From Terriglobia bacterium (GTDB lineage Bacteria > Acidobacteriota > Terriglobia > UBA7540), in assembly GCA_049698675.1 (NCBI GenBank), contig JBAVYG010000735.1:1-35962 (forward strand): 35,962 nt of DNA, read 5' to 3'. Of the stretch, positions 7,894 through 35,770 are shown piece by piece. The notes below the pieces were generated by a model. That model made no database searches. It was given only the letters and a program-made list of their open reading frames with translations, and was not told the DNA's origin. The position numbers and the translations under genes were made by a program. Within the stretch, counting starts at the first letter, position 1. Each line of letters opens with the position of its first letter.

Positions 7894-9570
7894 ATGAAAA
7901 CCTGCCCCACATGCCAGGGAAGCTACCCCAATGACTACGCAGTGTGCCCGCAGGATGGCTCGGCGCTTCAAGATGTTGGTATCTGGACCGAAGGGAGCGT
8001 CATCCGCGGGAAGTATCGCATTCTGAGCAAAGTGGGCCAAGGAGGAATGGGAGCGGTTTATAAGGCTTTGCACCTGGCGTTCGACGAATTGCGCGCCCTC
8101 AAAGTGATCGCTCCGGGGATCCTGCACGACCAACTTTTCGTGAGGCGGTTTAGACAGGAGGCCGTAATCACTCGCAAGCTCCAGCATCCCAATGCCGTGC
8201 GGGTGGACGATATTGACGAAGCCGAGGACGGCCGGCCTTTCATCGTCATGGAGTTCATCCAGGGCAAGAGCCTGAAGAAAGTCATTGAGGAAGAAGGACC
8301 ACTGCGCGTACCCCGCGTTTGCTCGATTATCAAACAGGTGGCCTCGGCCCTGGACGCAGCCCACCGCCTTGGGATGGTGCATCGGGATATCAAGCCGGAT
8401 AACATCGCGCTGATTGAAAGGCCGGAAGGTGAGCTGGTGAAGGTGCTTGATTTCGGTATTGCCAAGATGAAGGAGGCACGCGTTGGCGAGGCGTCAAGCA
8501 TGACGCTAACAGGGACGGGAATGGTGATCGGGACGCCGCAATATATTTCCCCCGAGCAGGCGCTGGGGAAGCGCGGAGACGAACTCGATGGGCGCTCGGA
8601 CCTTTATTCGCTCGGTGTGGTCATGTATGAGATGCTGACAGCCGCTCTTCCCTTCAAAGCCGAAACTACCATGGAAATGCTGCTGGCCCACCTGCAGCAG
8701 CCGCCGAGGCCCATCCCCACACTCCGCCCGGAGTTGCAAATACCCGAGCCAATTGTCCGCTTGGCAATGCGCCTGCTCGAAAAAGACCCTGCCCAGCGCC
8801 CCGCGAGTGCCAAGGCTCTGATCGAAGAAGTCGAAGCTGCGGAGAAGGGAAATGCATCTCCGGGCGCGAGGTGGGCTAAGCAACCGACCGAAGTCACATC
8901 ACGGGAGGAAATTCGAGCCGCACCAGAGGCGGTCCGTTCAGTTCCCGAGAAGGGCCAGGCCGCCCTCGTTAGCACTCTTGTTCCGGCCTCGGCTCACCCT
9001 GTTCAACCTCAGGTTGTTACCTCCCGCACACCGGTGCCGGTCGTATTACCGACGCCGCAGCCAGAGAAACAATCCCACTGGGGAATCTGGGTTGGGATCG
9101 CAATCCTGCTGGTAGGCCTGGGCGGAGGAGGCTGGTATACCCTGTCTCGGCATTCATCCTCACTTAGCACAACTCCTGTTTCCACAACATCCGGCCAAGG
9201 AGGGGGGACATCGCCGCAGACCTCGAGTCAGCCGCCCGCCCCTGAGCAAAATCCGCCCGTTCCTGAGTCCCCACAGGGGAAAACTTCCGGTGGCCAGCGG
9301 ATTCGACCTGAAGAAGCGCGCACGGCTTCTGAAACTCCGACGAGTAATGTCAATATAGCCCCTACGGGGACAGCCGCTTCGGTAGTGGACCCGAAGAAGA
9401 TCAAGGCTGCCATCACCTTGGGGGATTTTTACCTCAAAGATGGAAAATATGACGACGCCATCAAGGCTTACCAGGAAGGTTTGAATCTCGATCCTTCAAA
9501 CGCTGACCTGCGTAGCAAAATGGAACGAGCGGAGAAAGCCAAGGCTGCGGAAGAGAGACTTTTGAAGTAA
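7894..9570 (+). CDS. Serine/threonine protein kinase with N-terminal zinc ribbon, one TM segment and C-terminal TPR
   Basis: 'CPTCQG...CPQDG' ribbon. Hanks kinase motifs 'GQGGMGAVYKA', 'HRDIKPDN', 'DFGIAK' and 'GTPQYISPEQ'. TM segment 'WGIWVGIAILLVGLGGGGWY'. TPR-like tail 'YDDAIKAYQEGLNLDPSNADL'. Confidence 0.9.
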   Translation: MKTCPTCQGSYPNDYAVCPQDGSALQDVGIWTEGSVIRGKYRILSKVGQGGMGAVYKALHLAFDELRALKVIAPGILHDQLFVRRFRQEAVITRKLQHPNAVRVDDIDEAEDGRPFIVMEFIQGKSLKKVIEEEGPLRVPRVCSIIKQVASALDAAHRLGMVHRDIKPDNIALIERPEGELVKVLDFGIAKMKEARVGEASSMTLTGTGMVIGTPQYISPEQALGKRGDELDGRSDLYSLGVVMYEMLTAALPFKAETTMEMLLAHLQQPPRPIPTLRPELQIPEPIVRLAMRLLEKDPAQRPASAKALIEEVEAAEKGNASPGARWAKQPTEVTSREEIRAAPEAVRSVPEKGQAALVSTLVPASAHPVQPQVVTSRTPVPVVLPTPQPEKQSHWGIWVGIAILLVGLGGGGWYTLSRHSSSLSTTPVSTTSGQGGGTSPQTSSQPPAPEQNPPVPESPQGKTSGGQRIRPEEARTASETPTSNVNIAPTGTAASVVDPKKIKAAITLGDFYLKDGKYDDAIKAYQEGLNLDPSNADLRSKMERAEKAKAAEERLLK

Positions 9571-9708: not shown

Positions 9709-10617
9709 ATGGCTGTTCGAAGGCTCTGCACAATTCTGGCTGTTTTCATCGCGCTTGCGTTTTGTCTGCCTGGTGTAAAGGCGCAGAAGAGTTCGAAGCC
9801 CCTGGCGAAAGAGAATGTACTCGAACTTCTGACCGGGGATGTACCACCGGAGCGCGTTGCCGCCATCGTTCGCGAGCGAGGAGTTTCATTTAAACTGGAC
9901 CGAGCTGCGGAAGACCAGATCCGTCAAGCTGGCGGCAACGATGAGCTCTTGAAGGCAATTCGCGAGCTTGCGCCAAAGCCTCCCACTTCTCAGGCCGGGA
10001 AGGCGAAGCCCCCTGCGACGCCGAAGCCTGCTGGTCCGCCGGTTCTGCTGATTGAGGCCACTCCGGGCGACGCGCACGTCTATATCGATGATGAGCTGGT
10101 GGGGACCACAAGCCCCGAAGGGAGACTGAAAATCAGCACCCTCTCACCGGGCGCGCATCGGGTCCGGCTTGCGCACAGGAGCTTCCAGGATCATGAAGAA
10201 ACGGTGCAATTGACTTCGGGAGAAACCACCCTAGTTGCCTCGAATCTGCAAGCAGCGGATACAACGCCCGTCCAGGCCCCGGCGGAGCCGGCAGCAACGG
10301 CCACTAATCCGACGGCCACTGTCTCGGTTGCCCCGGGTTATTTGGGCGTTCGTGCCGCCCAACATCAGCCGGCCGGGAGCAAGGGGGTTGTAATCTTAGA
10401 TATCGCACCTGGGGGACCTGCCGACAGGGCCGGGCTGAAGCCTAACGATACAATCCTCAGCATCGGCGGCCAGCGAATAAGGACGCCGCAAGACCTTCAG
10501 GCTGCTCTGGTTAGCCACAAGGCAGGAGAGACGGTAGAGATCATCTGGTCCAGCGGCAACAGCGTGGTGACGAAGTCCATCCGGTTATCCGCGCGCCTAG
10601 CCGGCCCTCCTACGTAG
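9709..10617 (+). CDS. Secreted PEGA-domain / PDZ-domain protein
   Basis: Signal peptide 'MAVRRLCTILAVFIALAFCLPGVKAQ' from the ATG at 9709; an in-frame GTG at 9664 is an alternative start. PEGA-like 'PGDAHVYIDDELVGTTSPEGRLKISTLSPGAHRVRL'. PDZ 'GVVILDIAPGGPADRAGLKPNDTILSIGGQRI'. Confidence 0.8.
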   Translation: MAVRRLCTILAVFIALAFCLPGVKAQKSSKPLAKENVLELLTGDVPPERVAAIVRERGVSFKLDRAAEDQIRQAGGNDELLKAIRELAPKPPTSQAGKAKPPATPKPAGPPVLLIEATPGDAHVYIDDELVGTTSPEGRLKISTLSPGAHRVRLAHRSFQDHEETVQLTSGETTLVASNLQAADTTPVQAPAEPAATATNPTATVSVAPGYLGVRAAQHQPAGSKGVVILDIAPGGPADRAGLKPNDTILSIGGQRIRTPQDLQAALVSHKAGETVEIIWSSGNSVVTKSIRLSARLAGPPT

Positions 10618-10682
10618 GAGAATGCCACCCGCCAGCCTGTGCCGCCCGCCGAGAAATCCGGCTGTACGACCTTGGCGCGGCA

Positions 10683-12065
10683 ATGGCGCCATTATTCCGC
10701 AATCTTTGGGAACAAACGCACAGGGTAAAGATGCTTGAACTCGATTCCAATCGCGCACTGCTGGTGGACCTTTACGAATTGACCATGGCGGCAGCGTACT
10801 TCGAGCAACATGTGGACTGCCGCGCAAGTTTCGAACTCTTCGTCCGCCAGTTGCCCCCCGAGCGCGCTTACCTCGTGGCCGGTGGCATCGAAGACGCCGT
10901 GGATTACCTCGCGGCCTTGCGATTCACTCGAGAGGACGTGAACTTCGTTCGCAGCCTGCCTGTGTTTCGCAATGTTTCTTCTGAATTCTTCGAGTATCTT
11001 CGCGAGTTCCGCTTTGCCGGCGACGTTGAGGCGGTCGAGGAAGGCACACTCATCTTTGCGGAAGAGCCGCTTCTTCAGGTGACCGCGCCGATTCTGGAAG
11101 CACAAATTGTTGAGACCTACCTGCTCTCCATCACCAATTTTGAGACGCTGGTTGCCTCCAAGTCGGCTCGCGTAGTGCGGGCGGCGCGTGGCCGGGGCGT
11201 GTTCGAGTTCGGCACGCGGCGGGCGCAGGGGCCTGAAGCCGGCGTTCGCGCCGCGCGCGCCGCGTACCTCGGCGGGTGTGTTGCGACCTCGAATGTTCTG
11301 GCGGGCTTTCAATACGGCATCCCGCTTGCAGGCACGGCAGCCCATTCCTGGACCCAGGCTTTCCCAACCGAACGTCAAAGCTTCGAGGCCCTCCTGGACA
11401 CGTTCCCGGAGGATGCCATCCTGTTGATCGACACCTATGACCCAATTGCAGGAGCGGAGACCGCAGCCACCCTCGGGCGGAAGATTGCGGGCGTACGCAT
11501 CGATAGCGGTGACCTCCTCGCAACGAGCCGCCGGGTTCGGGAAATCCTGGACCGTCACGGCCTGCATGAGGCCAAGATCGTGGCCAGCGGGGATTTGAAC
11601 GAGTACAAGGTGGAAGCCCTGCTTTCGCAAGGAGCGCCCATCGACCTCTTCGGCGTAGGGACCGATCTCGCCACCTCGCGCGACGTCCCTGCGCTCAACG
11701 TGGTCTACAAGCTGGTTGAGATCGAACACAACGGGCAGGTGGATTACAAGAGCAAATTCAGCGAAGGGAAAGTCTATTCGCCGGGCCGGAAGCAGGTCTT
11801 CCGGTTCTCGGCTGGCGGTCATTATCATCATGATCTGATCACACGCTCCCGCGAAGAGCCTTCGGAGGGCACACCGCTGCTCCACCCCGTGATGCGCAAT
11901 GGCAGGAGGCTCAGGTCCCGGCCATACCTCCAAGACGCGAGGACTAATGTCCTTGCGAATCTTGACCGCTTGCCGGAACCTTACCACGCTCTGCGGAACG
12001 CGCCTGGTTATCCCGTAGCCAAGAGCGAGGCGCTCCAGCGCCTCCTGGAGGAGGTTCGCGAGTAG
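10683..12065 (+). CDS. pncB: Nicotinate phosphoribosyltransferase
   Basis: N-terminal 'ALLVDLYELTMAAAYF' and 'FGTRRA...GTAAHSW...IDTYD...VRIDSGD' are typical of the NAPRTase family. An alternative ATG start lies at 10731. Confidence 0.88.
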   Translation: MAPLFRNLWEQTHRVKMLELDSNRALLVDLYELTMAAAYFEQHVDCRASFELFVRQLPPERAYLVAGGIEDAVDYLAALRFTREDVNFVRSLPVFRNVSSEFFEYLREFRFAGDVEAVEEGTLIFAEEPLLQVTAPILEAQIVETYLLSITNFETLVASKSARVVRAARGRGVFEFGTRRAQGPEAGVRAARAAYLGGCVATSNVLAGFQYGIPLAGTAAHSWTQAFPTERQSFEALLDTFPEDAILLIDTYDPIAGAETAATLGRKIAGVRIDSGDLLATSRRVREILDRHGLHEAKIVASGDLNEYKVEALLSQGAPIDLFGVGTDLATSRDVPALNVVYKLVEIEHNGQVDYKSKFSEGKVYSPGRKQVFRFSAGGHYHHDLITRSREEPSEGTPLLHPVMRNGRRLRSRPYLQDARTNVLANLDRLPEPYHALRNAPGYPVAKSEALQRLLEEVRE

Positions 12066-12086
12066 AGCTTCGGGGCGCGACAGGCG

Positions 12087-12226
12087 GGCAGAAGGGATTA
12101 GGGAATAGGGAACAGCGAGTAAGCGGGAAGCGGCAGGAAAGAGGCAGAAAGCGGAGGGCAGAAGTCAAATGGCAAAAGGCAAATGGCAAATGGCAAAAAG
12201 CAGAAGGCGGGAGGCAGTAAGCGTCA
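12087..12226. repeat. Heptamer array A1: 20 in-phase degenerate heptamers, consensus RGCRRRA (for example ggcagaa, ggcaaat, ggcaaaa)
   Basis: Parsed by hand. It has 20 consecutive 7-nt units (140 bp) and the top strand is almost purine-only. It starts 21 nt after the pncB stop. Confidence 0.85.
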
Positions 12227-12241
12227 GCTGTTGTGCGTGAG

Positions 12242-12304
12242 TTTCCAGTTTCGAGTTTCGATTTTCGAATTTCCAGTTTCTAATTTCTAGTTTCTGATTT
12301 CCAG
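12242..12304. repeat. Heptamer array A2: 9 in-phase heptamers TTTCNNN (tttccag/tttcgag/.../tttctaa/tttctag/tttctga)
   Basis: Nine perfect-phase units. It ends 11 nt before the pncA ATG. The core TTTCCAG is the reverse complement of the CTGGAAA core at 14553-14573. Confidence 0.85.
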
Positions 12305-12315
12305 TTGGTGCGAGA

Positions 12316-12951
12316 ATGAGTGAACCGAACAAGTCTGGCCGTTTGGTGTTTCTTGATGTCGATACGCAGGTGGACTTTATGTCTCCGAGTGGAAGGCTTT
12401 ATGTGCCACATGCGGAGGAGATCATCCCTAACCTGACGAAATTGATGTTGTGGGCGCGGGACCACAGAATCCCCATCATTTCATCCGCTGATACGCACGC
12501 GCCGGACGACCCGGAGTTCGCCCAATGGCCTCCTCACTGTGTGGTGGGGACGCCCGGCCAGCGCCGCATTCCTGAGACGTTCTTCCCTGACGCCGTGGTC
12601 GTGGAGGACCGTCCGGGTGCCTTTCAGGCCTCCAAAGAATGGGTTGGACAGCTCATCGTGGAGAAGCCAGTGTACGTGGTCTCCGCAAACGTGAATTTCG
12701 ATGCCATCCTGGCTTCGCTTGGCCGGTCTCGCTTCGTGGTGTTTGGCGTGGCCACCGAATACTGTGTACTGTCGGATGTCCTGGCACTGCGCAAGCGCAA
12801 CCTGCCTGTGGCTCTCGTTCGGGATGCCATTAAGCCCATCACCGAAGAGGGGGGTCGGAAGGCCATTGAGGAGATGGTCGCTGCAGGGGTCCAGTTAGTC
12901 ACGACCGCGGCCGTTTGTAGTCCAGGGTTTCAAGGTTTCTGCATGCAGTAA
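12316..12951 (+). CDS. pncA: Nicotinamidase / isochorismatase-family hydrolase
   Basis: 'LVFLDVDTQVDF...YVP', 'SSADTHAPDDPEF..WPPHCVVGTPG' and 'VFGVATEYCV' (catalytic Cys context). Located next to pncB. Confidence 0.8.
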   Translation: MSEPNKSGRLVFLDVDTQVDFMSPSGRLYVPHAEEIIPNLTKLMLWARDHRIPIISSADTHAPDDPEFAQWPPHCVVGTPGQRRIPETFFPDAVVVEDRPGAFQASKEWVGQLIVEKPVYVVSANVNFDAILASLGRSRFVVFGVATEYCVLSDVLALRKRNLPVALVRDAIKPITEEGGRKAIEEMVAAGVQLVTTAAVCSPGFQGFCMQ

Positions 12952-13947: not shown

Positions 13948-14526
13948 ATGGTGATCGCATCCCAGCTCCGTCCAGGAACGGTTCTGAAGATAAATAATGA
14001 CCTCTTTAAGGTGATCGACTCGCAGTATCACATCGGACAAGGCAAGATGCCCGGCAGCGTCCACGCGAAGCTGCGCAACGTCCTAAAGGGCACGTTCAAA
14101 GAGTTGCGCTTCCGGCCGGAGGAGCGGCTGGAGGAAACCCAACTCGAGAAGCAAGAGATGGAATTCCTTTACAGCGACACTGATTCGGCAACCTTCATGA
14201 ACCCAAGAACTTATGACCAGGTTTCCATCCCGCTCGAGGCCATCGGCGCGGCGGCGACATATCTCCAGCCTGAGGTGAAAGTGCCGGTGGAGTTCTACGA
14301 AGGGCAGCCGGTCAGCATCGTCTTCCCGGAGATCGTCGAGGTGAAGATCCAGACGACCGCGCAGCCAGTCCACCAGCAACAAGACAACACCTACAAATCC
14401 GCTACGCTGGAAAATGGCACGGAACTGATGGTTCCACAATTCATCAAACCCGGGGAGACGATACGCGTCGAAGTGACTACGGCCAAGTACGTGGACCGCG
14501 TGCGAGCCGATACGAAGAGGTTCTAG
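13948..14526 (+). CDS. efp: Elongation factor P family protein (divergent loop and domain III)
   Basis: 192 aa with EF-P architecture: 'LRPGTVLKINNDLFKVIDSQYH', '...AKLRN', 'MEFLYSD..ATFMNPRTYDQV' and 'VPQFIKPGETIRVEVTTAKYVDR'. The tip Lys33 is retained in the atypical loop 'HIGQGKMPGS'. Confidence 0.85.
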   Translation: MVIASQLRPGTVLKINNDLFKVIDSQYHIGQGKMPGSVHAKLRNVLKGTFKELRFRPEERLEETQLEKQEMEFLYSDTDSATFMNPRTYDQVSIPLEAIGAAATYLQPEVKVPVEFYEGQPVSIVFPEIVEVKIQTTAQPVHQQQDNTYKSATLENGTELMVPQFIKPGETIRVEVTTAKYVDRVRADTKRF

Positions 14527-14551
14527 CAGTGACGAGGGAGAAGAGGAGACT

Positions 14552-14656
14552 AGAAACTGGAAAATGGAAACTGGGATCCTGGTCTTTCCCCACCTACGAC
14601 ATACGACCTACCACCTACCACGTACGACCTACCACCTACCACGTACGACCTACCAC
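14552..14656. repeat. Heptamer array B: CTGGAAA-type units followed by about 9 CTACSAC units, including two perfect 21-nt copies; left arm of the inverted repeat bracketing the GNAT gene
   Basis: Units gaaactg/gaaaatg/gaaactg at 14553-14573. Units ctacgac/atacgac/ctaccac... at 14594-14656. 14608-14628 is identical to 14629-14649. The stretch 14552-14621 is the reverse complement of 15289-15372. Confidence 0.9.
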
Positions 14657-14733
14657 CCACCCCGTCATGCAATTTGTACTATGGCAAACATCGCCTGAGC
14701 TTGCTAAGATAGACCTTACTTTTCGCTAAAATC

Positions 14734-15279
14734 ATGGATACGCCAGGCCTCAACGTCTCCGCCAGACCGCACTTCCAGCTCAAAGTGCGTCCGGCCGAAT
14801 TGCGGGACGCATCCGACATTGCCCGCATCTATCTCCAGGCGACGCAAGACAACCTTGCTACCTTTGAGAACTTCCTCCATACGCCCGAGGAGCGAACGCG
14901 CTGGGTGAATGAACATGGGGGGAAGTATCCTCTCCTGGTGGCGGAGTTGAATGGTTGGATTCTGGGCTGGGCAGCGCTCAGTCCATACCTCGTCCGTCCC
15001 CGCATGGAGGGAATCGCTGAGCTCCTGATCTACATTGACCGCGACTACCGGCGGCATGGCGTGGGGCGGGAAATAATGCGCGCGGTCCTGGCAATCGCCG
15101 AGGCCGTGGGCCACTTCAAGCTGGTGGGCCGGTTCCTGGCGCACAACGATGCTGGCCGGACGCTCTGCCGCCTGACGGGCTGGCGCGAGGTGGGAGTGCA
15201 CTTGAAACACACCAAGCTGGAGGGGCGCTGGCACGACGTGGTGGTGGTTGAGTATCTAATCGCCGAGAACTTGAAGTGA
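14734..15279 (+). CDS. GNAT N-acetyltransferase, phosphinothricin/L-amino-acid acetyltransferase (PAT/YncA-like) family
   Basis: 'VRPAELRDASDIARIY...ATFE...EERTRWVNEHGGKYPLLVAE..GWILGWAALSPY..R.....AELLIYIDRDYRRHGVGREIM' and 'KLEGRWHDVVVVEYLI' fit the PAT-type GNAT pattern. Confidence 0.85.
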   Translation: MDTPGLNVSARPHFQLKVRPAELRDASDIARIYLQATQDNLATFENFLHTPEERTRWVNEHGGKYPLLVAELNGWILGWAALSPYLVRPRMEGIAELLIYIDRDYRRHGVGREIMRAVLAIAEAVGHFKLVGRFLAHNDAGRTLCRLTGWREVGVHLKHTKLEGRWHDVVVVEYLIAENLK

Positions 15280-15288
15280 CGGCAATTG

Positions 15289-15372
15289 GTGGTAGGTGGT
15301 AGGTCGTATGTGGTAGGTGGGGAAAGACCAGGATTCCAGTTTCCGCCTCCCAGTTTCTATTTTCCAGTTTCT
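15289..15372. repeat. Heptamer array C: GTGGTAG units followed by AGTTTCC-type units; right arm of the inverted repeat bracketing the GNAT gene
   Basis: Units gtggtag x3, gtcgtat, then agtttcc/agtttct. The reverse complement matches 14552-14621 at 68/70 positions, with a 14-nt (two-unit) insertion. Confidence 0.9.
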
Positions 15373-15397
15373 GCTTTCTTGCTCGTCCTTGAAAAGA

Positions 15398-15474
15398 TGG
15401 CAGGCGTGGAGGGACTCGAACCCCCGACCCACGGATTAGAAATCCGTTGCTCTATCCACCTGAGCTACACGCCC
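15398..15474 (-). tRNA. tRNA-Arg (anticodon TCT), CCA encoded
   Basis: The reverse complement GGGCGTGTAGCTCAGGTGGATAGAGCAACGGATTTCTAATCCGTGGGTCGGGGGTTCGAGTCCCTCCACGCCTGCCA folds as a cloverleaf. Anticodon stem ACGGA/TCCGT, loop TTTCTAA, T-loop GGTTCGAGTCC. Confidence 0.9.
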
Positions 15475-15551: not shown

Positions 15552-15628
15552 TGGGGTGGGTGACGGGATTCGAACCCGCGACGTCCAGATCCACAGTCTG
15601 GCGCTCTACCAGCTGAGCTACACCCACC
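15552..15628 (-). tRNA. tRNA-His (anticodon GTG) with encoded G-1 and CCA
   Basis: The reverse complement is G+GTGGGTGTAGCTCAGCTGGTAGAGCGCCAGACTGTGGATCTGGACGTCGCGGGTTCGAATCCCGTCACCCACCCCA. Anticodon loop CTGTGGA. An extra 5' G lies opposite discriminator C73. Confidence 0.9.
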
Positions 15629-15741
15629 ACAACTGCGGGGCTCGCGTGCAGGTAGCCTCTATACCTTTGTAACACCGGGGGTGAAGGGTGTCAACTAATC
15701 GGGTGATCGAGTGAGCAAGAAACCGCCCCCTCGGCTCTCAT

Positions 15742-15833
15742 GTCATTCCGAGCGTAGCGAGGAATCTTGCTCTGGGCTTGGGCGTATGTGGAGGCAATAA
15801 TCGAAGCGAGATTCCTCGCTACGCTCGGAATGA
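15742..15833. repeat. Palindromic element: 25-26 bp perfect inverted repeat (gtcattccgagcgtagcgaggaatct / agattcctcgctacgctcggaatgac) with a 41-nt spacer
   Basis: Arms at 15742-15767 and 15809-15833 are exact reverse complements. The element lies in the intergenic gap between tRNA-His and the gene at 15899-16372. Confidence 0.85.
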
Positions 15834-15898
15834 CACCTGGGGCATTCCACCTGGAGCATCACGCCTCTTTTTGAACGCCCGATCACCGGAACGCCCGA

Positions 15899-16372
15899 TT
15901 ACCGGGTTGACTCGTCGGCGGGGATTTCCTGGAGCTCCGTAGGATGCTGGCAGCAGACGCAATCGCCGGGTTCAAGGGCCTCGATATTACATACTTTGCA
16001 GAAATAACGCACTCGGAAGAGCTTCCCACTCTTGACCGTGTAGAGCCGCTCGACCTCAAATGTTCCATCGGCTTTCATCGTTCCTTCGAGCCGGATCTCG
16101 CGGTTGGCCAAGCGTTTGTCCAGCAAGGTGTGGAACAGATAAGTGGTGGTGGCGGAGAGGGGCTGGTCCTTTTCATGTATTCGTAAGACCGGCCCTTGCC
16201 CAGGGATGGAGAGCAGCTTCCCTTCCAGGGCTGCCAAATGAAGTGTTTCGCCTTGGGCCGCGTATAAAGGGGAAGCTGACAGCGCAGCCGTCCACACAAT
16301 CAGGCCAATCGCCATCACTCGCATTGAGGGGCTCGGGCAGGTCTCGTGCTGTTGTTTTTCTGAGGAGTACAT
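15899..16372 (-). CDS. Hypothetical secreted protein with C-terminal Cys cluster (CxxC-x9-CxCC)
   Basis: Signal-like 'MRVMAIGLIVWTAALSASPLYAAQG' (alternative start ATG at 16324). C-terminus 'CKVCNIEALEPGDCVCC'. I recognise no family with confidence. Confidence 0.6.
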   Translation of the reverse strand: MYSSEKQQHETCPSPSMRVMAIGLIVWTAALSASPLYAAQGETLHLAALEGKLLSIPGQGPVLRIHEKDQPLSATTTYLFHTLLDKRLANREIRLEGTMKADGTFEVERLYTVKSGKLFRVRYFCKVCNIEALEPGDCVCCQHPTELQEIPADESTR

Positions 16373-16392
16373 CAAGTTAATTTCACCATTGC

Positions 16393-16462
16393 TTCATTGA
16401 GTCATTGATTCATTGACAAAAAAACCTTGGAATGCTTTTCAATGATTCAATGACTCAATGAA
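16393..16462. repeat. Octamer-repeat hairpin: (tcattgaN)x3 and (tcaatgaN)x3 arms, 23/24 complementary, 22-nt A-rich loop
   Basis: Left arm 16393-16416 (ttcattgagtcattgattcattga). Right arm 16439-16462 (tcaatgattcaatgactcaatgaa). It lies between two tandem minus-strand genes, just after the stop at 16484. Confidence 0.8.
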
Positions 16463-16483
16463 CCAATCACTCAATGCCGTTCG

Positions 16484-17149
16484 TCAGCCCTCCCACTTTC
16501 CGACCACCGTGAACGCTATCGGAAGATCGCCGCCTGACCCGTGAACCTTCACCTGGAGGTCCCAATGGCCCTGATCATCTTTGACCACAGCCGGGAAGCT
16601 GTCTCCATTCAACGGCGCGCCCACGAGGAAACCAGGGTGCGGCGTGCCCGACGATTGGCGGCCCAACTTTACGAGGTCATCAAATTTCAGGGCGGTGGCG
16701 AGATCGTTGTCCACGGCGACGGGGCAGAGGATCAATACGTCCCTGGTAGGGTTCACCCCCATATGATTTCCGTCCTGAGGAATCAACCCGTAGCGCAAAG
16801 TATAAAACCCCGGCTTGATGGCCTGGCCGCGGAAATCAGCTCCCTGACTGGGGAAGTGCAGCACGCCAAGGAACACTCCTTCACTCAGAGAAGCATAGAG
16901 AAAGTCCGAAGAACCGCCGGCGCTGGAGCTGGTGGGCACGCTCTTGCGTAACCACACCTCCAGCAACGTGCCTCCCTGGTCGTTTAATACCCGCGTTCCC
17001 TGTGATTCCAATGCATCTTGCAAGGGTTTGGAAAGGTCTGCGACTGGCGGCGCTCCGGCGTTTTCCACTTTGTAGGTCTGTCCAAACGCCATGCTTGCCA
17101 AGACAAGTTGCGAGGCAAGAATCAACACCTGCGCGCGATGCAGTTTCAT
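16484..17149 (-). CDS. Hypothetical secreted protein
   Basis: ATG at 17149 with an upstream 'gaggg'. Signal peptide 'MKLHRAQVLILASQLVLASMAFGQ'. Long ORF with coding-like composition. I recognise no family. Confidence 0.65.
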   Translation of the reverse strand: MKLHRAQVLILASQLVLASMAFGQTYKVENAGAPPVADLSKPLQDALESQGTRVLNDQGGTLLEVWLRKSVPTSSSAGGSSDFLYASLSEGVFLGVLHFPSQGADFRGQAIKPGFYTLRYGLIPQDGNHMGVNPTRDVLILCPVAVDNDLATALKFDDLVKLGRQSSGTPHPGFLVGAPLNGDSFPAVVKDDQGHWDLQVKVHGSGGDLPIAFTVVGKWEG

Positions 17150-17282
17150 AAAGTAGCCCTCATTTCTTAGATGCTCTGAACTCAAAACCGGGAACGCCGG
17201 AATAACCTGCTTCCCGTTTCTATTCTATTGTGCGGCACGCGACCGGGAAAAATCTAGCAGGTTGCTGAAAAATGGTATTGGG

Positions 17283-17324
17283 GGCAGAAGTCAGGCGTCA
17301 GAAGTCAGGAGTCAGAAGAAGAAA
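17283..17324. repeat. Heptamer array E1: ggcagaa gtcaggc gtcagaa gtcagga gtcagaa gaagaaa
   Basis: Six in-phase units with core GTCAG. Related to the A1 units (ggcagaa, gtcaaat). Confidence 0.8.
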
Positions 17325-17438
17325 CCAAGTGCCAGCACCGATAGCGCAAGTCACGCCGTCTTGATCTGGGGCTTGCCAGGCGAAAAATGGAGTAACCATA
17401 GGGCAGCCGGCAAGCAGGTCAGTGGAATGGGGCTGGAG

Positions 17439-17510
17439 GCTGACCGCTGAACGCTGACCCGCCGCGGCGGGACGACTGACCACTAACCACTGACTACTGA
17501 CCACTGACTA
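17439..17510. repeat. Heptamer array E2: gctgacc gctgaac gctgacc ... gactgac cactaac cactgac tactgac cactgac
   Basis: About ten in-phase units with core CTGAC, the complement of the E1 core. An embedded palindrome, ccgccgcggcgg, is present. The array abuts the stop codon (17511-17513) of the minus-strand gene. Confidence 0.8.
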
Positions 17511-18188
17511 CTAGAGCGAGAGCGAAAACCTGCCCACAAAGGCGCTGCGTTTACCCATGTGGTTCCAGACCACATTCAAACCCTTGCCTTGGAACGAATC
17601 CTCAATTGTGAACGCAGGCATGGCGTGAGCCAGTTGAACGAGCGGCGGATAGAATACGAACTCGTTCCCGCAGATGTCGTCGCCATGGCACAAGCTGCGC
17701 GTTTCAATGCGCGCCAAGTTCCCGGCCACAAGGCGGGCAGTGCCGTGGTCCTCTCCCTGAGCGAAGGCCAAATGAATAGGGGCTGTTTCAACGCGAACCA
17801 CGTGGCTCAGGAGCTTCCCGGCCATGGCAGCGGCGAAATCCTGTAGGGCCAAGCGTTGCCGGGGGGTGGCCCGTTGGTCGACAATCAGTACGGACTCGGC
17901 TGGATAAGGAGTATGGTAGGGATCACCTAATGTGGCATGGGCCTTCACGACTGCCACAACGCCCAGGCCGTTCAAACTGGTTCCCCTCCAGTCGCCTTCT
18001 TTGATTCTCCATGCCAGGATCGCCTCGTTTCCAACCAGGCCAACTTCGCCGTTGGCGAAGCATGGGCCGGTGTAAACATCTGCGCTTCGCGCTTCGATAT
18101 AGTCTCCCTTGATTGCCGCGCTGCCTGGGATGGCCAACAGCACCATCAGAGCTAACCCCACAACCGCTTGAAGACAAAGCTTCCGCAT
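17511..18188 (-). CDS. Hypothetical secreted protein (resembles DUF1326-type proteins; family assignment tentative)
   Basis: ATG at 18188 preceded by 'aaggaggg'. Signal peptide 'MRKLCLQAVVGLALMVLLAIPGSAA'. 'GDYIEARSADVYTGPCF...ILAWRIKEGDWRGTSLNGLGVVAVV' recalls the DUF1326 layout. This is from memory only. Confidence 0.65.
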   Translation of the reverse strand: MRKLCLQAVVGLALMVLLAIPGSAAIKGDYIEARSADVYTGPCFANGEVGLVGNEAILAWRIKEGDWRGTSLNGLGVVAVVKAHATLGDPYHTPYPAESVLIVDQRATPRQRLALQDFAAAMAGKLLSHVVRVETAPIHLAFAQGEDHGTARLVAGNLARIETRSLCHGDDICGNEFVFYPPLVQLAHAMPAFTIEDSFQGKGLNVVWNHMGKRSAFVGRFSLSL

Positions 18189-27076: not shown

Positions 27077-27118
27077 CCACATACCACCTACTACCTACCA
27101 CATACCTGCTGCCTCCTG
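27077..27118. repeat. Heptamer array F: ccacata ccaccta ctaccta ccacata cctgctg cctcctg
   Basis: Six in-phase units, C-rich and G-poor on the top strand. The CTACC/CCACC vocabulary matches arrays B and C. Confidence 0.7.
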
Positions 27119-35630: not shown

Positions 35631-35770
35631 GAATTCTGAATTGTGAATTCTGAAGTGTGGAGTCCGAAGTGTAAAGTCTGAAGTGTGAAGTCTGAATGAT
35701 GAGTCTTGAATCTTGAATCTCGAATTTTGAATTGCCTTCAACTGACAACGGACCACGGACGACCAACCTT
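35631..35770. repeat. Heptamer array G: 20 in-phase heptamers (15 x GAAKTST-type, then cttcaac tgacaac ggaccac ggacgac caacctt)
   Basis: Parsed by hand. 140 bp in unbroken 7-nt phase. It starts 2 nt after the permease TAG and ends 5 nt before the ATPase ATG. Confidence 0.85.

Follow-up and report, generated by a model that had tools for sequence, protein, structure and literature searches.

The window analysed here is a 36-kb stretch of DNA of Terriglobia (Acidobacteriota) from a peat metagenome, in which it belongs to a 113-kb JGI contig; it was placed in its clade by way of the GNAT acetyltransferase that it encodes. In this window, a GNAT gene between the elongation factor P gene efp and a tRNA-Arg/tRNA-His pair is bracketed by the two arms of a long inverted repeat, and the structure and origin of this repeat are the subject of our study. 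The efp gene lies upstream of the left arm at 13948-14526 (+) and was assigned by Pfam (EFP_N, EFP and Elong-fact-P_C) and by NCBIfam NF001810 (171 bits, cut-off 161). The gene at 14734-15279 (+) encodes a PAT/ArsN1-like GNAT acetyltransferase according to Pfam (Acetyltransf_1/3/4/7/10), with an NCBIfam ArsN1a score of 149 bits, which is below the cut-off of 170; synteny marks it as a resident of the efp-GNAT-permease block. Beyond the right arm, ARAGORN and Rfam place tRNA-Arg(TCT) at 15398-15474 (-) and tRNA-His(GTG) at 15552-15627 (-). A sequence-only reading of the window had named the same neighbours, and they are confirmed by the Pfam and ARAGORN/Rfam results. Related loci carry the labels L001 to L051, with L001 and L002 belonging to the source population.

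Structure of the inverted repeat

The arms, at 14552-14621 and 15289-15372, are reverse complements at 68 of 70 positions, apart from one 14-nt insertion of two heptamers. Of the 46 positions of 14576-14621, 45 agree with the reverse complement of 15289-15334, and this stretch contains a perfect 22-mer, ATCCTGGTCTTTCCCCACCTAC, found at 14576-14597 (+) and 15313-15334 (-). Further out, 14552-14575 and the reverse complement of 15335-15372 differ by one mismatch and by the insertion, TCCAGTTTCCGCCT (15335-15348). The coordinates and identity counts of the sequence-only reading were all reproduced. An ungapped repeat search delimits the arms as 14545-14621 and 15289-15365 (77 nt, 90% complementary, with 667 nt between them), and weaker complementarity reaches to about 14531 and 15389, so that it spans almost the whole distance between the efp stop codon and the tRNA-Arg 3' end. 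When up to three mismatches were allowed, the 22-mer had no match in 100 shuffles of the window, and the arm pair is therefore not a product of chance. The identical arrangement is present in contigs of two JGI samples (L001 and L002), and L019, a metagenome-assembled genome (MAG) of independent origin, has a homologous pair of arms; together these findings rule out an assembly artefact.

Both arms are composite and consist of an array of heptamers, a non-repeat core of 15-16 nt and a second array (GGAAACT/CCACCTA on the left, GGTGGTA/AGTTTCC on the right). The left arm begins a few bases past the efp stop codon with purine-rich GGAAACT-type heptamers (14531-14575, +; period 7 at 14545-14574 in Tandem Repeats Finder, TRF), which are complementary to 15335-15389. 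At the switch from the purine-rich to the pyrimidine-rich array lies the left core, ATCCTGGTCTTTCCCC (14576-14591, +), the exact reverse complement of 15319-15334. It is followed by the inner part of pyrimidine-rich CCACCTA heptamers (14590-14665, +; TRF periods 7 and 21), in which a 21-nt super-period is repeated 3.6 times. The right arm matches this array at 14590-14621 only, and the two further 21-nt units represent a local expansion. The right arm starts 9 nt past the GNAT stop codon with purine-rich GGTGGTA heptamers (15289-15320, +; TRF period 7 at 15288-15320), to which arrays in L019, L020, L017, L021 and L003 are orthologous. Its core, GGGGAAAGACCAGGAT (15319-15334, +), has orthologues in relatives that fall into three types, A, B and C. 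The outer part, built of pyrimidine-rich AGTTTCC-type heptamers and including the 14-nt insertion (15335-15389, +; TRF at 15334-15378), ends 9 nt short of the tRNA-Arg 3' end.

The non-repeat core marks the arms as true paralogues, beyond the heptamers that they share. Inverted matches between different array-bearing spacers of relatives extend over only 59-67 nt at 75-76% and are without such a core. In 39 loci we also compared the spacer ahead of GNAT with the reverse-complemented spacer behind it; five loci had spacers too short to score. The window reached 53 and L019 reached 55, while the other 32 loci lay between 6 and 17. In a few loci, for example L004, the similarity between the GNAT flanks is direct instead of inverted.

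Distribution and co-variation of the arms

Relatives were drawn from a protein database clustered at 90% identity, and lineages at 94-97% GNAT identity are referred to as the close group. Directly past GNAT, the right arm is found in the window, L019, L020, L017, L021/L009 and L003. The left arm is restricted to the window, L018 and L019, where its position is identical and its flanking sequence shared, with TAG(C/T)AGTGACGAG at the outer end and ...CCACGT(C/A)ATGCAAT followed by an invariant 33-mer at the inner end. Both arms thus occur in two of the seven close lineages (the window and L019), whereas about 30 more distant lineages all lack the pair. The remaining five have a single arm, on the left in L018 and on the right in L003, L017, L020 and L021, from which it follows that arm pairing is dispensable. 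L019 has both arms, while its sister L020, 98.5% identical to it in GNAT nucleotide sequence, is without the left one, so that arms must be lost quickly.

The invariant 33-mer belongs to a unique leader that precedes GNAT outside the inverted repeat (14666-14733, +, defined by alignment). Its part at 14682-14713, TGGCAAACATCGCCTGAGCTTGCTAAGATAGA (32 nt, 33 aligned columns), is unchanged in the window, L018, L019 and L021, although the coding sequences of these four lineages differ by 4-6%, and it is missing from lineages in which efp and GNAT are separated by only 7-14 nt. It may be a GNAT promoter or regulatory site. A promoter scan of 13.4-16 kb gave a single promoter-like match, on the minus strand at 15521-15493, that was no better than those in shuffles.

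The right arm is the ancestral 3' spacer of GNAT. For the left-arm spacer, the simplest reading of the alignments would be a single origin followed by repeated clean deletions. Deletions are favoured by the leader shared among L018, L019 and L021, by a hairpin just past efp that is common to L018 and the more distant L023, and by the sisterhood of L019 and L020. The 11-nt efp-GNAT junction of L003 was considered as proof of a recent left-arm insertion and dropped, as short junctions are more likely to reflect repeated deletions. The window's left arm is without the 14-nt insertion and has CGACATACG, like the right arm of L021; it thus looks like an earlier form of the right-hand spacer, in keeping with copying from right to left.

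The cores provide the clearest record of exchange between the arms. Type A, ACTGG[G/A]ATCCTGGTCTTTCCCC, is present in both arms of the window and in the right arm of L021, and the left core of L018 is of this type save for one substitution (CTGTTC for CTGGTC). Type B, ACTGGTATCTTGGTTTT(T)CCCC, is present in both arms of L019, with variants in the right arms of L017 (one substitution) and L020 (more diverged), and type C in the right arm of L003. At three diagnostic core sites the left arms of the window and of L019 each match their own right arm. Compared over about 54 nt, the two arms of the window show two mismatches, whereas the window's left arm and its L019 orthologue show five mismatches and one indel. 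The left arms thus match their own right arms although they are orthologous by position, which indicates exchange between the arms, that is, concerted evolution. Gene conversion between the inverted arms would most simply account for this homogenisation, and conversion without crossover would fit a GNAT gene that is never seen inverted. The proposal of recent duplication or gene conversion in the sequence-only reading is borne out by the agreement in core variant between the left and right arms of each genome.

At the left-arm site of L021/L009 we considered a decayed left arm; the similarity was marginal, and a CTGTTC core match seen there by eye was not relied on. An insertion sequence (IS) of 1393 bp with a DDE_5 transposase and 24-nt terminal inverted repeats lies at 5022-6414 of L009, and the same element is present in L021. 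It is inserted 140 nt upstream of GNAT and has split GNAT from efp. The MAG SPRUCE 311 contains both the version of the locus with the IS (L021) and an efp-GNAT version (L020), which could reflect a strain mixture or a duplication.

Heptamer arrays in the clade

We surveyed arrays in 540 kb of sequence, comprising the window and 37 Terriglobia loci; counts that involve spacers and stop codons rest on greedy longest-open-reading-frame (ORF) gene calls and are approximate. TRF returned 227 rows of period 7, 97 of period 14 and 52 of period 21, with periods 6 and 8 yielding 13 and 38 rows, and arrays occur about once per 2.6 kb in this uncultivated peat clade. There are dozens of unit families, which are mostly A/G-rich and have runs of GG only; GGAAACT is the commonest, and GGTGGTA ranks fifth. 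When two arrays share a spacer, the purine-rich one precedes the pyrimidine-rich one on the plus strand in 51 cases and follows it in three, so that the layout is alike on both strands. Arrays are found in 22% of tandem, 22% of convergent and 7% of divergent spacers. The first array past a stop codon is purine-rich on the sense strand in 74 of 103 cases and starts at a median of 5 nt after the stop. In the pyrimidine-rich orientation the arrays are C-rich and G-poor (U 41%, C 31%, G 13%), a composition that resembles, as a matter of speculation, that of Rho-loading sites. Full-text literature searches found no description of heptamer arrays in Acidobacteriota.

Both arms at the GNAT locus obey the purine-then-pyrimidine order, and since the reverse complement of such a module keeps its polarity, an inverted copy still fits the rule of the clade. 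Each arm is an ordinary example of the clade's gene-end spacer. Similar arrays are present elsewhere in the window (12093-12306, 16394-16476, 17285-17513, 27077-27106 and 35631-35760). Orthologous spacers of relatives hold differing arrays or none, and the arms differ from each other in steps of 7, 14 and 42 nt. The sequence-only reading, which noted that no annotated feature explains the repeats, gave too little weight to how common arrays of this kind are in the spacers of this genome and clade. The strictly polar, clade-wide array system is the more interesting point, with the GNAT locus as one instance of it, and the turnover of heptamer spacers bears on assembly breaks, on misannotated ORF ends and on tests of array function.

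Arrays also extend into coding sequence. In L009 (7164-7200, -) and in L003 (about 1829-1853), the convergent amino-acid permease ORF runs into a GGAAACT array, and its last dozen or so codons, ending in GRKARRQKPETGK, as well as its stop codon are array sequence. Arrays can thus remodel the C-termini of proteins.

Two further repeats were seen in the window. Octamer arrays, TCATTGAG and CTCAATGA, form an inverted repeat between two minus-strand genes at 16388-16467, and RNA of this spacer is predicted to fold into a strong hairpin (-39 kcal/mol, z -5.4), so that, unlike the GNAT arms, it pairs with itself. An Rfam search of 12-18 kb at a permissive threshold returned only the two tRNAs and spurious miRNA-type matches on this hairpin. 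A palindrome with 31-nt arms that are 97% complementary, built on GTCATTCCGAGCGTAGCGAGGAATC, lies at 15741-15835; members of the same family are present in L017 (6470-6856) and L026 (5799-5892 and 6581-6676), and it is probably a REP-like dispersed element.

Gene order around GNAT

The order NAPRT-isochorismatase-(Usp)-p74(-)-efp-GNAT-permease(-) was found across about 20 genomes. Among about 35 Terriglobia genomes, efp and GNAT remain neighbours until GNAT identity falls to about 74-77%, and GNAT and the permease(-) stay paired beyond that point. In most of these genomes the arrays beside GNAT are of other kinds or missing altogether. This conserved synteny, mostly without arms, indicates that GNAT is older than the arms and is a resident of the locus rather than captured cargo. 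In five lineages (L003, L017, L020, L022 and L024) the efp-GNAT spacer measures only 7-14 nt, a spacing that suggests that the two genes are co-transcribed as an operon. GNAT should accordingly be read as an ordinary operon partner of efp, and the arms mark neither a mobile resistance-type cassette nor a phase switch.

The tightly spaced operon of EF-P and a PAT/ArsN1-like GNAT is conserved across the clade, and the EF-P loop reads GQGKMPGS where KPGKG is usual. A functional link between the two proteins, such as acylation of EF-P, is conceivable.

Downstream of GNAT, most relatives have the ancestral, convergent amino-acid permease gene. The window has no such gene; there, as in L019 and L020, a complete or fragmentary tRNA-Arg takes its place, with the breakpoint 9 nt from the tRNA end. 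Only the 3' part of tRNA-Arg is kept after the right arm in L019 (about 38 nt, 8655-8700) and in L020 (about 29 nt, 8655-8690). Further on, at about 10496-12385, L019 has a Gp3-like recombination-directionality-factor gene and a DNA methylase fragment, whose presence suggests an integrative element at tRNA-Arg in this lineage. Such an element may explain why tRNA-Arg stands in place of the permease in the lineage of the window. Two ORFs of 158 and 233 amino acids (window 15899-17185, -) adjoin the tRNA pair; they have no Pfam match, occur among the fetched loci only in the source population (L001 and L002), and may be island cargo.

Origin of the inverted repeat

We consider it probable that the arms are paralogous inverted copies of one intergenic heptamer-array spacer, homogenised by conversion, around a resident GNAT gene. 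The repeat, the array rule of the clade, the synteny, the presence and absence of arms and their co-variation are the observations from which this explanation starts. Many gene 3' ends of the clade carry purine-rich and then pyrimidine-rich 7-nt arrays; according to the mechanism that we propose, these would slip by 7, 14 or 21 nt, and the right arm (GGTGGTA, core, AGTTTCC) would at the outset have been the spacer between GNAT and its convergent neighbour. Before the lineages of the window, L018 and L019 split, right-arm sequence would have been placed in inverted orientation into the efp-GNAT spacer. Afterwards, intrachromosomal gene conversion between the inverted arms, without crossover, would have kept the two copies near-identical within a genome, while heptamer units were gained or lost independently in each arm and one or the other arm was deleted in several sister lineages. 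GNAT has long been part of the efp-GNAT operon and is not mobilised by the arms, and their pairing would need no function. The direction of copying, from the right arm to the left, the homogenising role of conversion and slippage behind the changes in unit number are what we infer.

Several points weigh against this explanation. The case for concerted evolution rests on three core sites in the two genomes that have both arms, and selection for complementarity or a second, independent re-copying would give the same pattern. The direction and mechanism of copying are deduced and not directly seen in the data. Whether a long or a short efp-GNAT spacer is ancestral in the group at 94-97% identity was judged from gene-tree parsimony, and recombination may blur these trees. 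In L021, the left-arm site is weakly array-like, with local alignment scores that were equalled by 8-24 of 500 shuffles, and the efp-GNAT locus of this lineage is interrupted by the IS. Finally, the claim that the core is confined to a single locus rests on the 36-kb window and related populations, the source assembly lying outside the scanned collection.

Could the arms instead have been shaped as RNA? In a read-through efp-GNAT transcript they would pair over about 50-77 bp, with the GNAT cistron as the loop, and the duplex might act in RNase III processing or in transcript stability; the co-variation of the arms would then be due to selection for pairing and not to conversion. Both the minimum-free-energy and the centroid folds pair the arms in an 881-nt segment of the window and an 876-nt segment of L019 (z about -10), and arms folded singly are no more stable than shuffled sequence (z -0.9, +0.3 and +1.1). 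This pairing, however, follows automatically from a near-perfect inverted repeat and is uninformative. The three core sites at which the window and L019 differ keep complementarity in each of them, as an RNA stem would demand, but gene conversion predicts the same. One of the two arm mismatches of the window would be a G-U pair in RNA, whereas the other is G-G, and the indels of 7, 14 and 42 nt between the arms would bulge. No intrinsic terminator was predicted in a scan of 13.4-16 kb, from efp to the tRNA, and the 7-14 nt efp-GNAT spacer of five relatives points to an operon, both of which agree with read-through. The start region of GNAT would nevertheless lie in the loop, so that no direct translational control follows. 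The pairing is also not conserved: five of the seven close lineages have one arm only, and distant relatives have unrelated arrays, some of them direct and not inverted (L004). The RNA duplex raised by the sequence-only reading therefore forms in silico, but it would be at best a lineage-specific by-product, and we regard it as an unlikely cause of the repeat. A related proposal, which we rate as slightly less likely again, is that the pair is a young functional RNA element born of simple-sequence repeats (SSRs), with a stem of about 50-77 bp that is processed, for instance by RNase III. If this were true, expression of GNAT would be uncoupled from that of efp, and the three core differences would be true compensatory changes. 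In a broader and speculative form of the idea, the arrays of the clade would be bidirectional 3'-end elements, and the arm pair one case that gained a new role.

The remaining explanations treat the repeat as a trace of DNA rearrangement. An independent origin of each left arm, copied afresh from its own right arm for example by template switching between inverted heptamer arrays, would account for left-arm cores of the same type as those on the right in the window and L019; heptamer families common to both sides could seed such a switch, and these spacers are highly unstable. The left arms of the window, L018 and L019 nevertheless share site and flanks, which points to a single origin and makes two independent events improbable, and re-copying shades mechanistically into gene conversion. 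The sequence-only reading had also suggested an invertible or excisable cassette, in which recombination flips or removes the 667-bp segment and produces phase variation of GNAT. A complete gene is indeed bracketed by inverted repeats, and since identity over 45-77 nt is long enough for occasional RecA-dependent exchange in bacterial homologous recombination, the identical stretch of the arms could permit such exchange, so that rare RecA-mediated inversion is possible. The same reading noted that no recombinase lies nearby, and Pfam indeed revealed none within about 10 kb: the ORFs examined over about 3.7-26.5 kb of the window are free of integrase, invertase and transposase domains, the nearby ORFs of 158 and 233 amino acids being without a Pfam match. 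Gene order is the same in all five source-population contigs with an identical efp or GNAT protein, and GNAT is co-oriented with efp in every relative that has both genes, as far as assemblies rather than reads can tell. The segment moreover contains GNAT together with its own leader, so that flipping would make no on/off switch, and the core is not dispersed. An invertible or excisable cassette is contradicted by these observations and very improbable. The sequence-only reading also raised capture of the gene between repeat copies. Mobile repeats on either side of GNAT, arranged like the ends of a composite transposon or as paired miniature inverted-repeat transposable elements, could explain composite arms with a unique core and the variable presence of the left arm among close relatives, but capture is contradicted by synteny: in about 20 genomes GNAT stands with efp on one side and the permease on the other, and the majority of these genomes have GNAT but no arms. 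Further copies of the core, which capture would predict, were sought in the window, the metagenome collection and 64 fetched loci and lie nowhere except at the GNAT flanks. A degenerate 22-mer scan of JGI metagenome contigs gave nine matches, five of them orthologous right arms from one related population and four due to chance in unrelated sequence, and in the 64 loci the degenerate core occurs only beside GNAT. In alignments of relatives no direct repeat that would represent a target-site duplication is visible at the arm ends, and there is no transposase; capture is accordingly the least credible of these explanations, and extremely so.

The inverted repeat around GNAT is genuine beyond statistical doubt but of an ordinary kind, being made of intergenic heptameric SSRs. 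The class itself is already known; the case at GNAT is the inverted duplication, around a gene, of a whole two-array module with a unique core. The locus provides a small, datable example of spacers that are copied, homogenised and deleted within about 5% sequence divergence.

Comparison with known repeat systems

Invertible switches such as fimS, hin and the Bacteroides invertons have short recombinase-site repeats, a dedicated recombinase nearby and both orientations in the population. The GNAT locus resembles them in the segment between inverted repeats, but none of their recombinase or orientation features were found here. Processing stalks flank 16S and 23S rRNA, and there too complementary segments flank an enclosed RNA, whereas the pairing at the GNAT locus is not conserved across relatives. 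A repetitive extragenic palindromic (REP) unit is a hairpin of about 35 nt that pairs with itself and is spread by a RAYT transposase. Like REP units and the bacterial interspersed mosaic elements (BIMEs), the arms are repetitive, located in intergenic 3' regions and strand-symmetric; unlike them, they have no structure of their own, and their core belongs to a single locus. Concerted evolution of inverted duplicates by intrachromosomal gene conversion is known from tufA/tufB in Salmonella and from the inverted repeats of plastids. As with tufA/tufB, the inverted copies described here are more alike within a genome than orthologues are between genomes, but they consist of about 50-100 nt of non-coding SSR, near the lower limit for RecA-dependent exchange, and the pattern is seen at three sites in two genomes.

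Among heptamer arrays, the short tandemly repeated repetitive (STRR) sequences of cyanobacteria were reportedly described by Mazel et al. in 1990. The arrays of the Terriglobia clade are likewise abundant and intergenic, belong to several families and are hypervariable in copy number. Heptamer arrays occur in both cyanobacteria and Beggiatoaceae, and TAACTGA repeats are located mostly just upstream of start codons (MacGregor 2015, PMC4679880). The arrays of our clade belong to another phylum and have other units, and they follow gene 3' ends with a strand-symmetric polarity.

The closest likeness is to the (GGGAATC)n heptameric SSRs of Xanthomonas, about 90% of which are intergenic, with imperfect copies and an upstream stop codon at a mean distance of 28 nt (Rehm et al. 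2015, PMC4692102). These arrays are rare between divergent genes (7-8%), and each genome has 70-75 "convergent pairs" in which a plus-strand array is followed by a minus-strand array (PMC4692102). The arrays in our clade share the 7-nt tandem units with imperfect copies, the intergenic location of about 90% of them, the position in gene-3'-end spacers (at a median of 5 nt after the stop), the scarcity in divergent spacers (7%), the pairing of arrays on opposite strands, and a length and sequence that are not kept between close relatives. They differ in that Xanthomonas has essentially one G-rich unit capable of forming G-quadruplexes, while dozens of unit families with GG and not GGG runs are present here. 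The inverted duplication of a two-array module around a gene belongs to the GNAT locus and is not described for Xanthomonas. With the Terriglobia, a third phylum now shows the unexplained heptamer-array layout known from Xanthomonas and the cyanobacteria.

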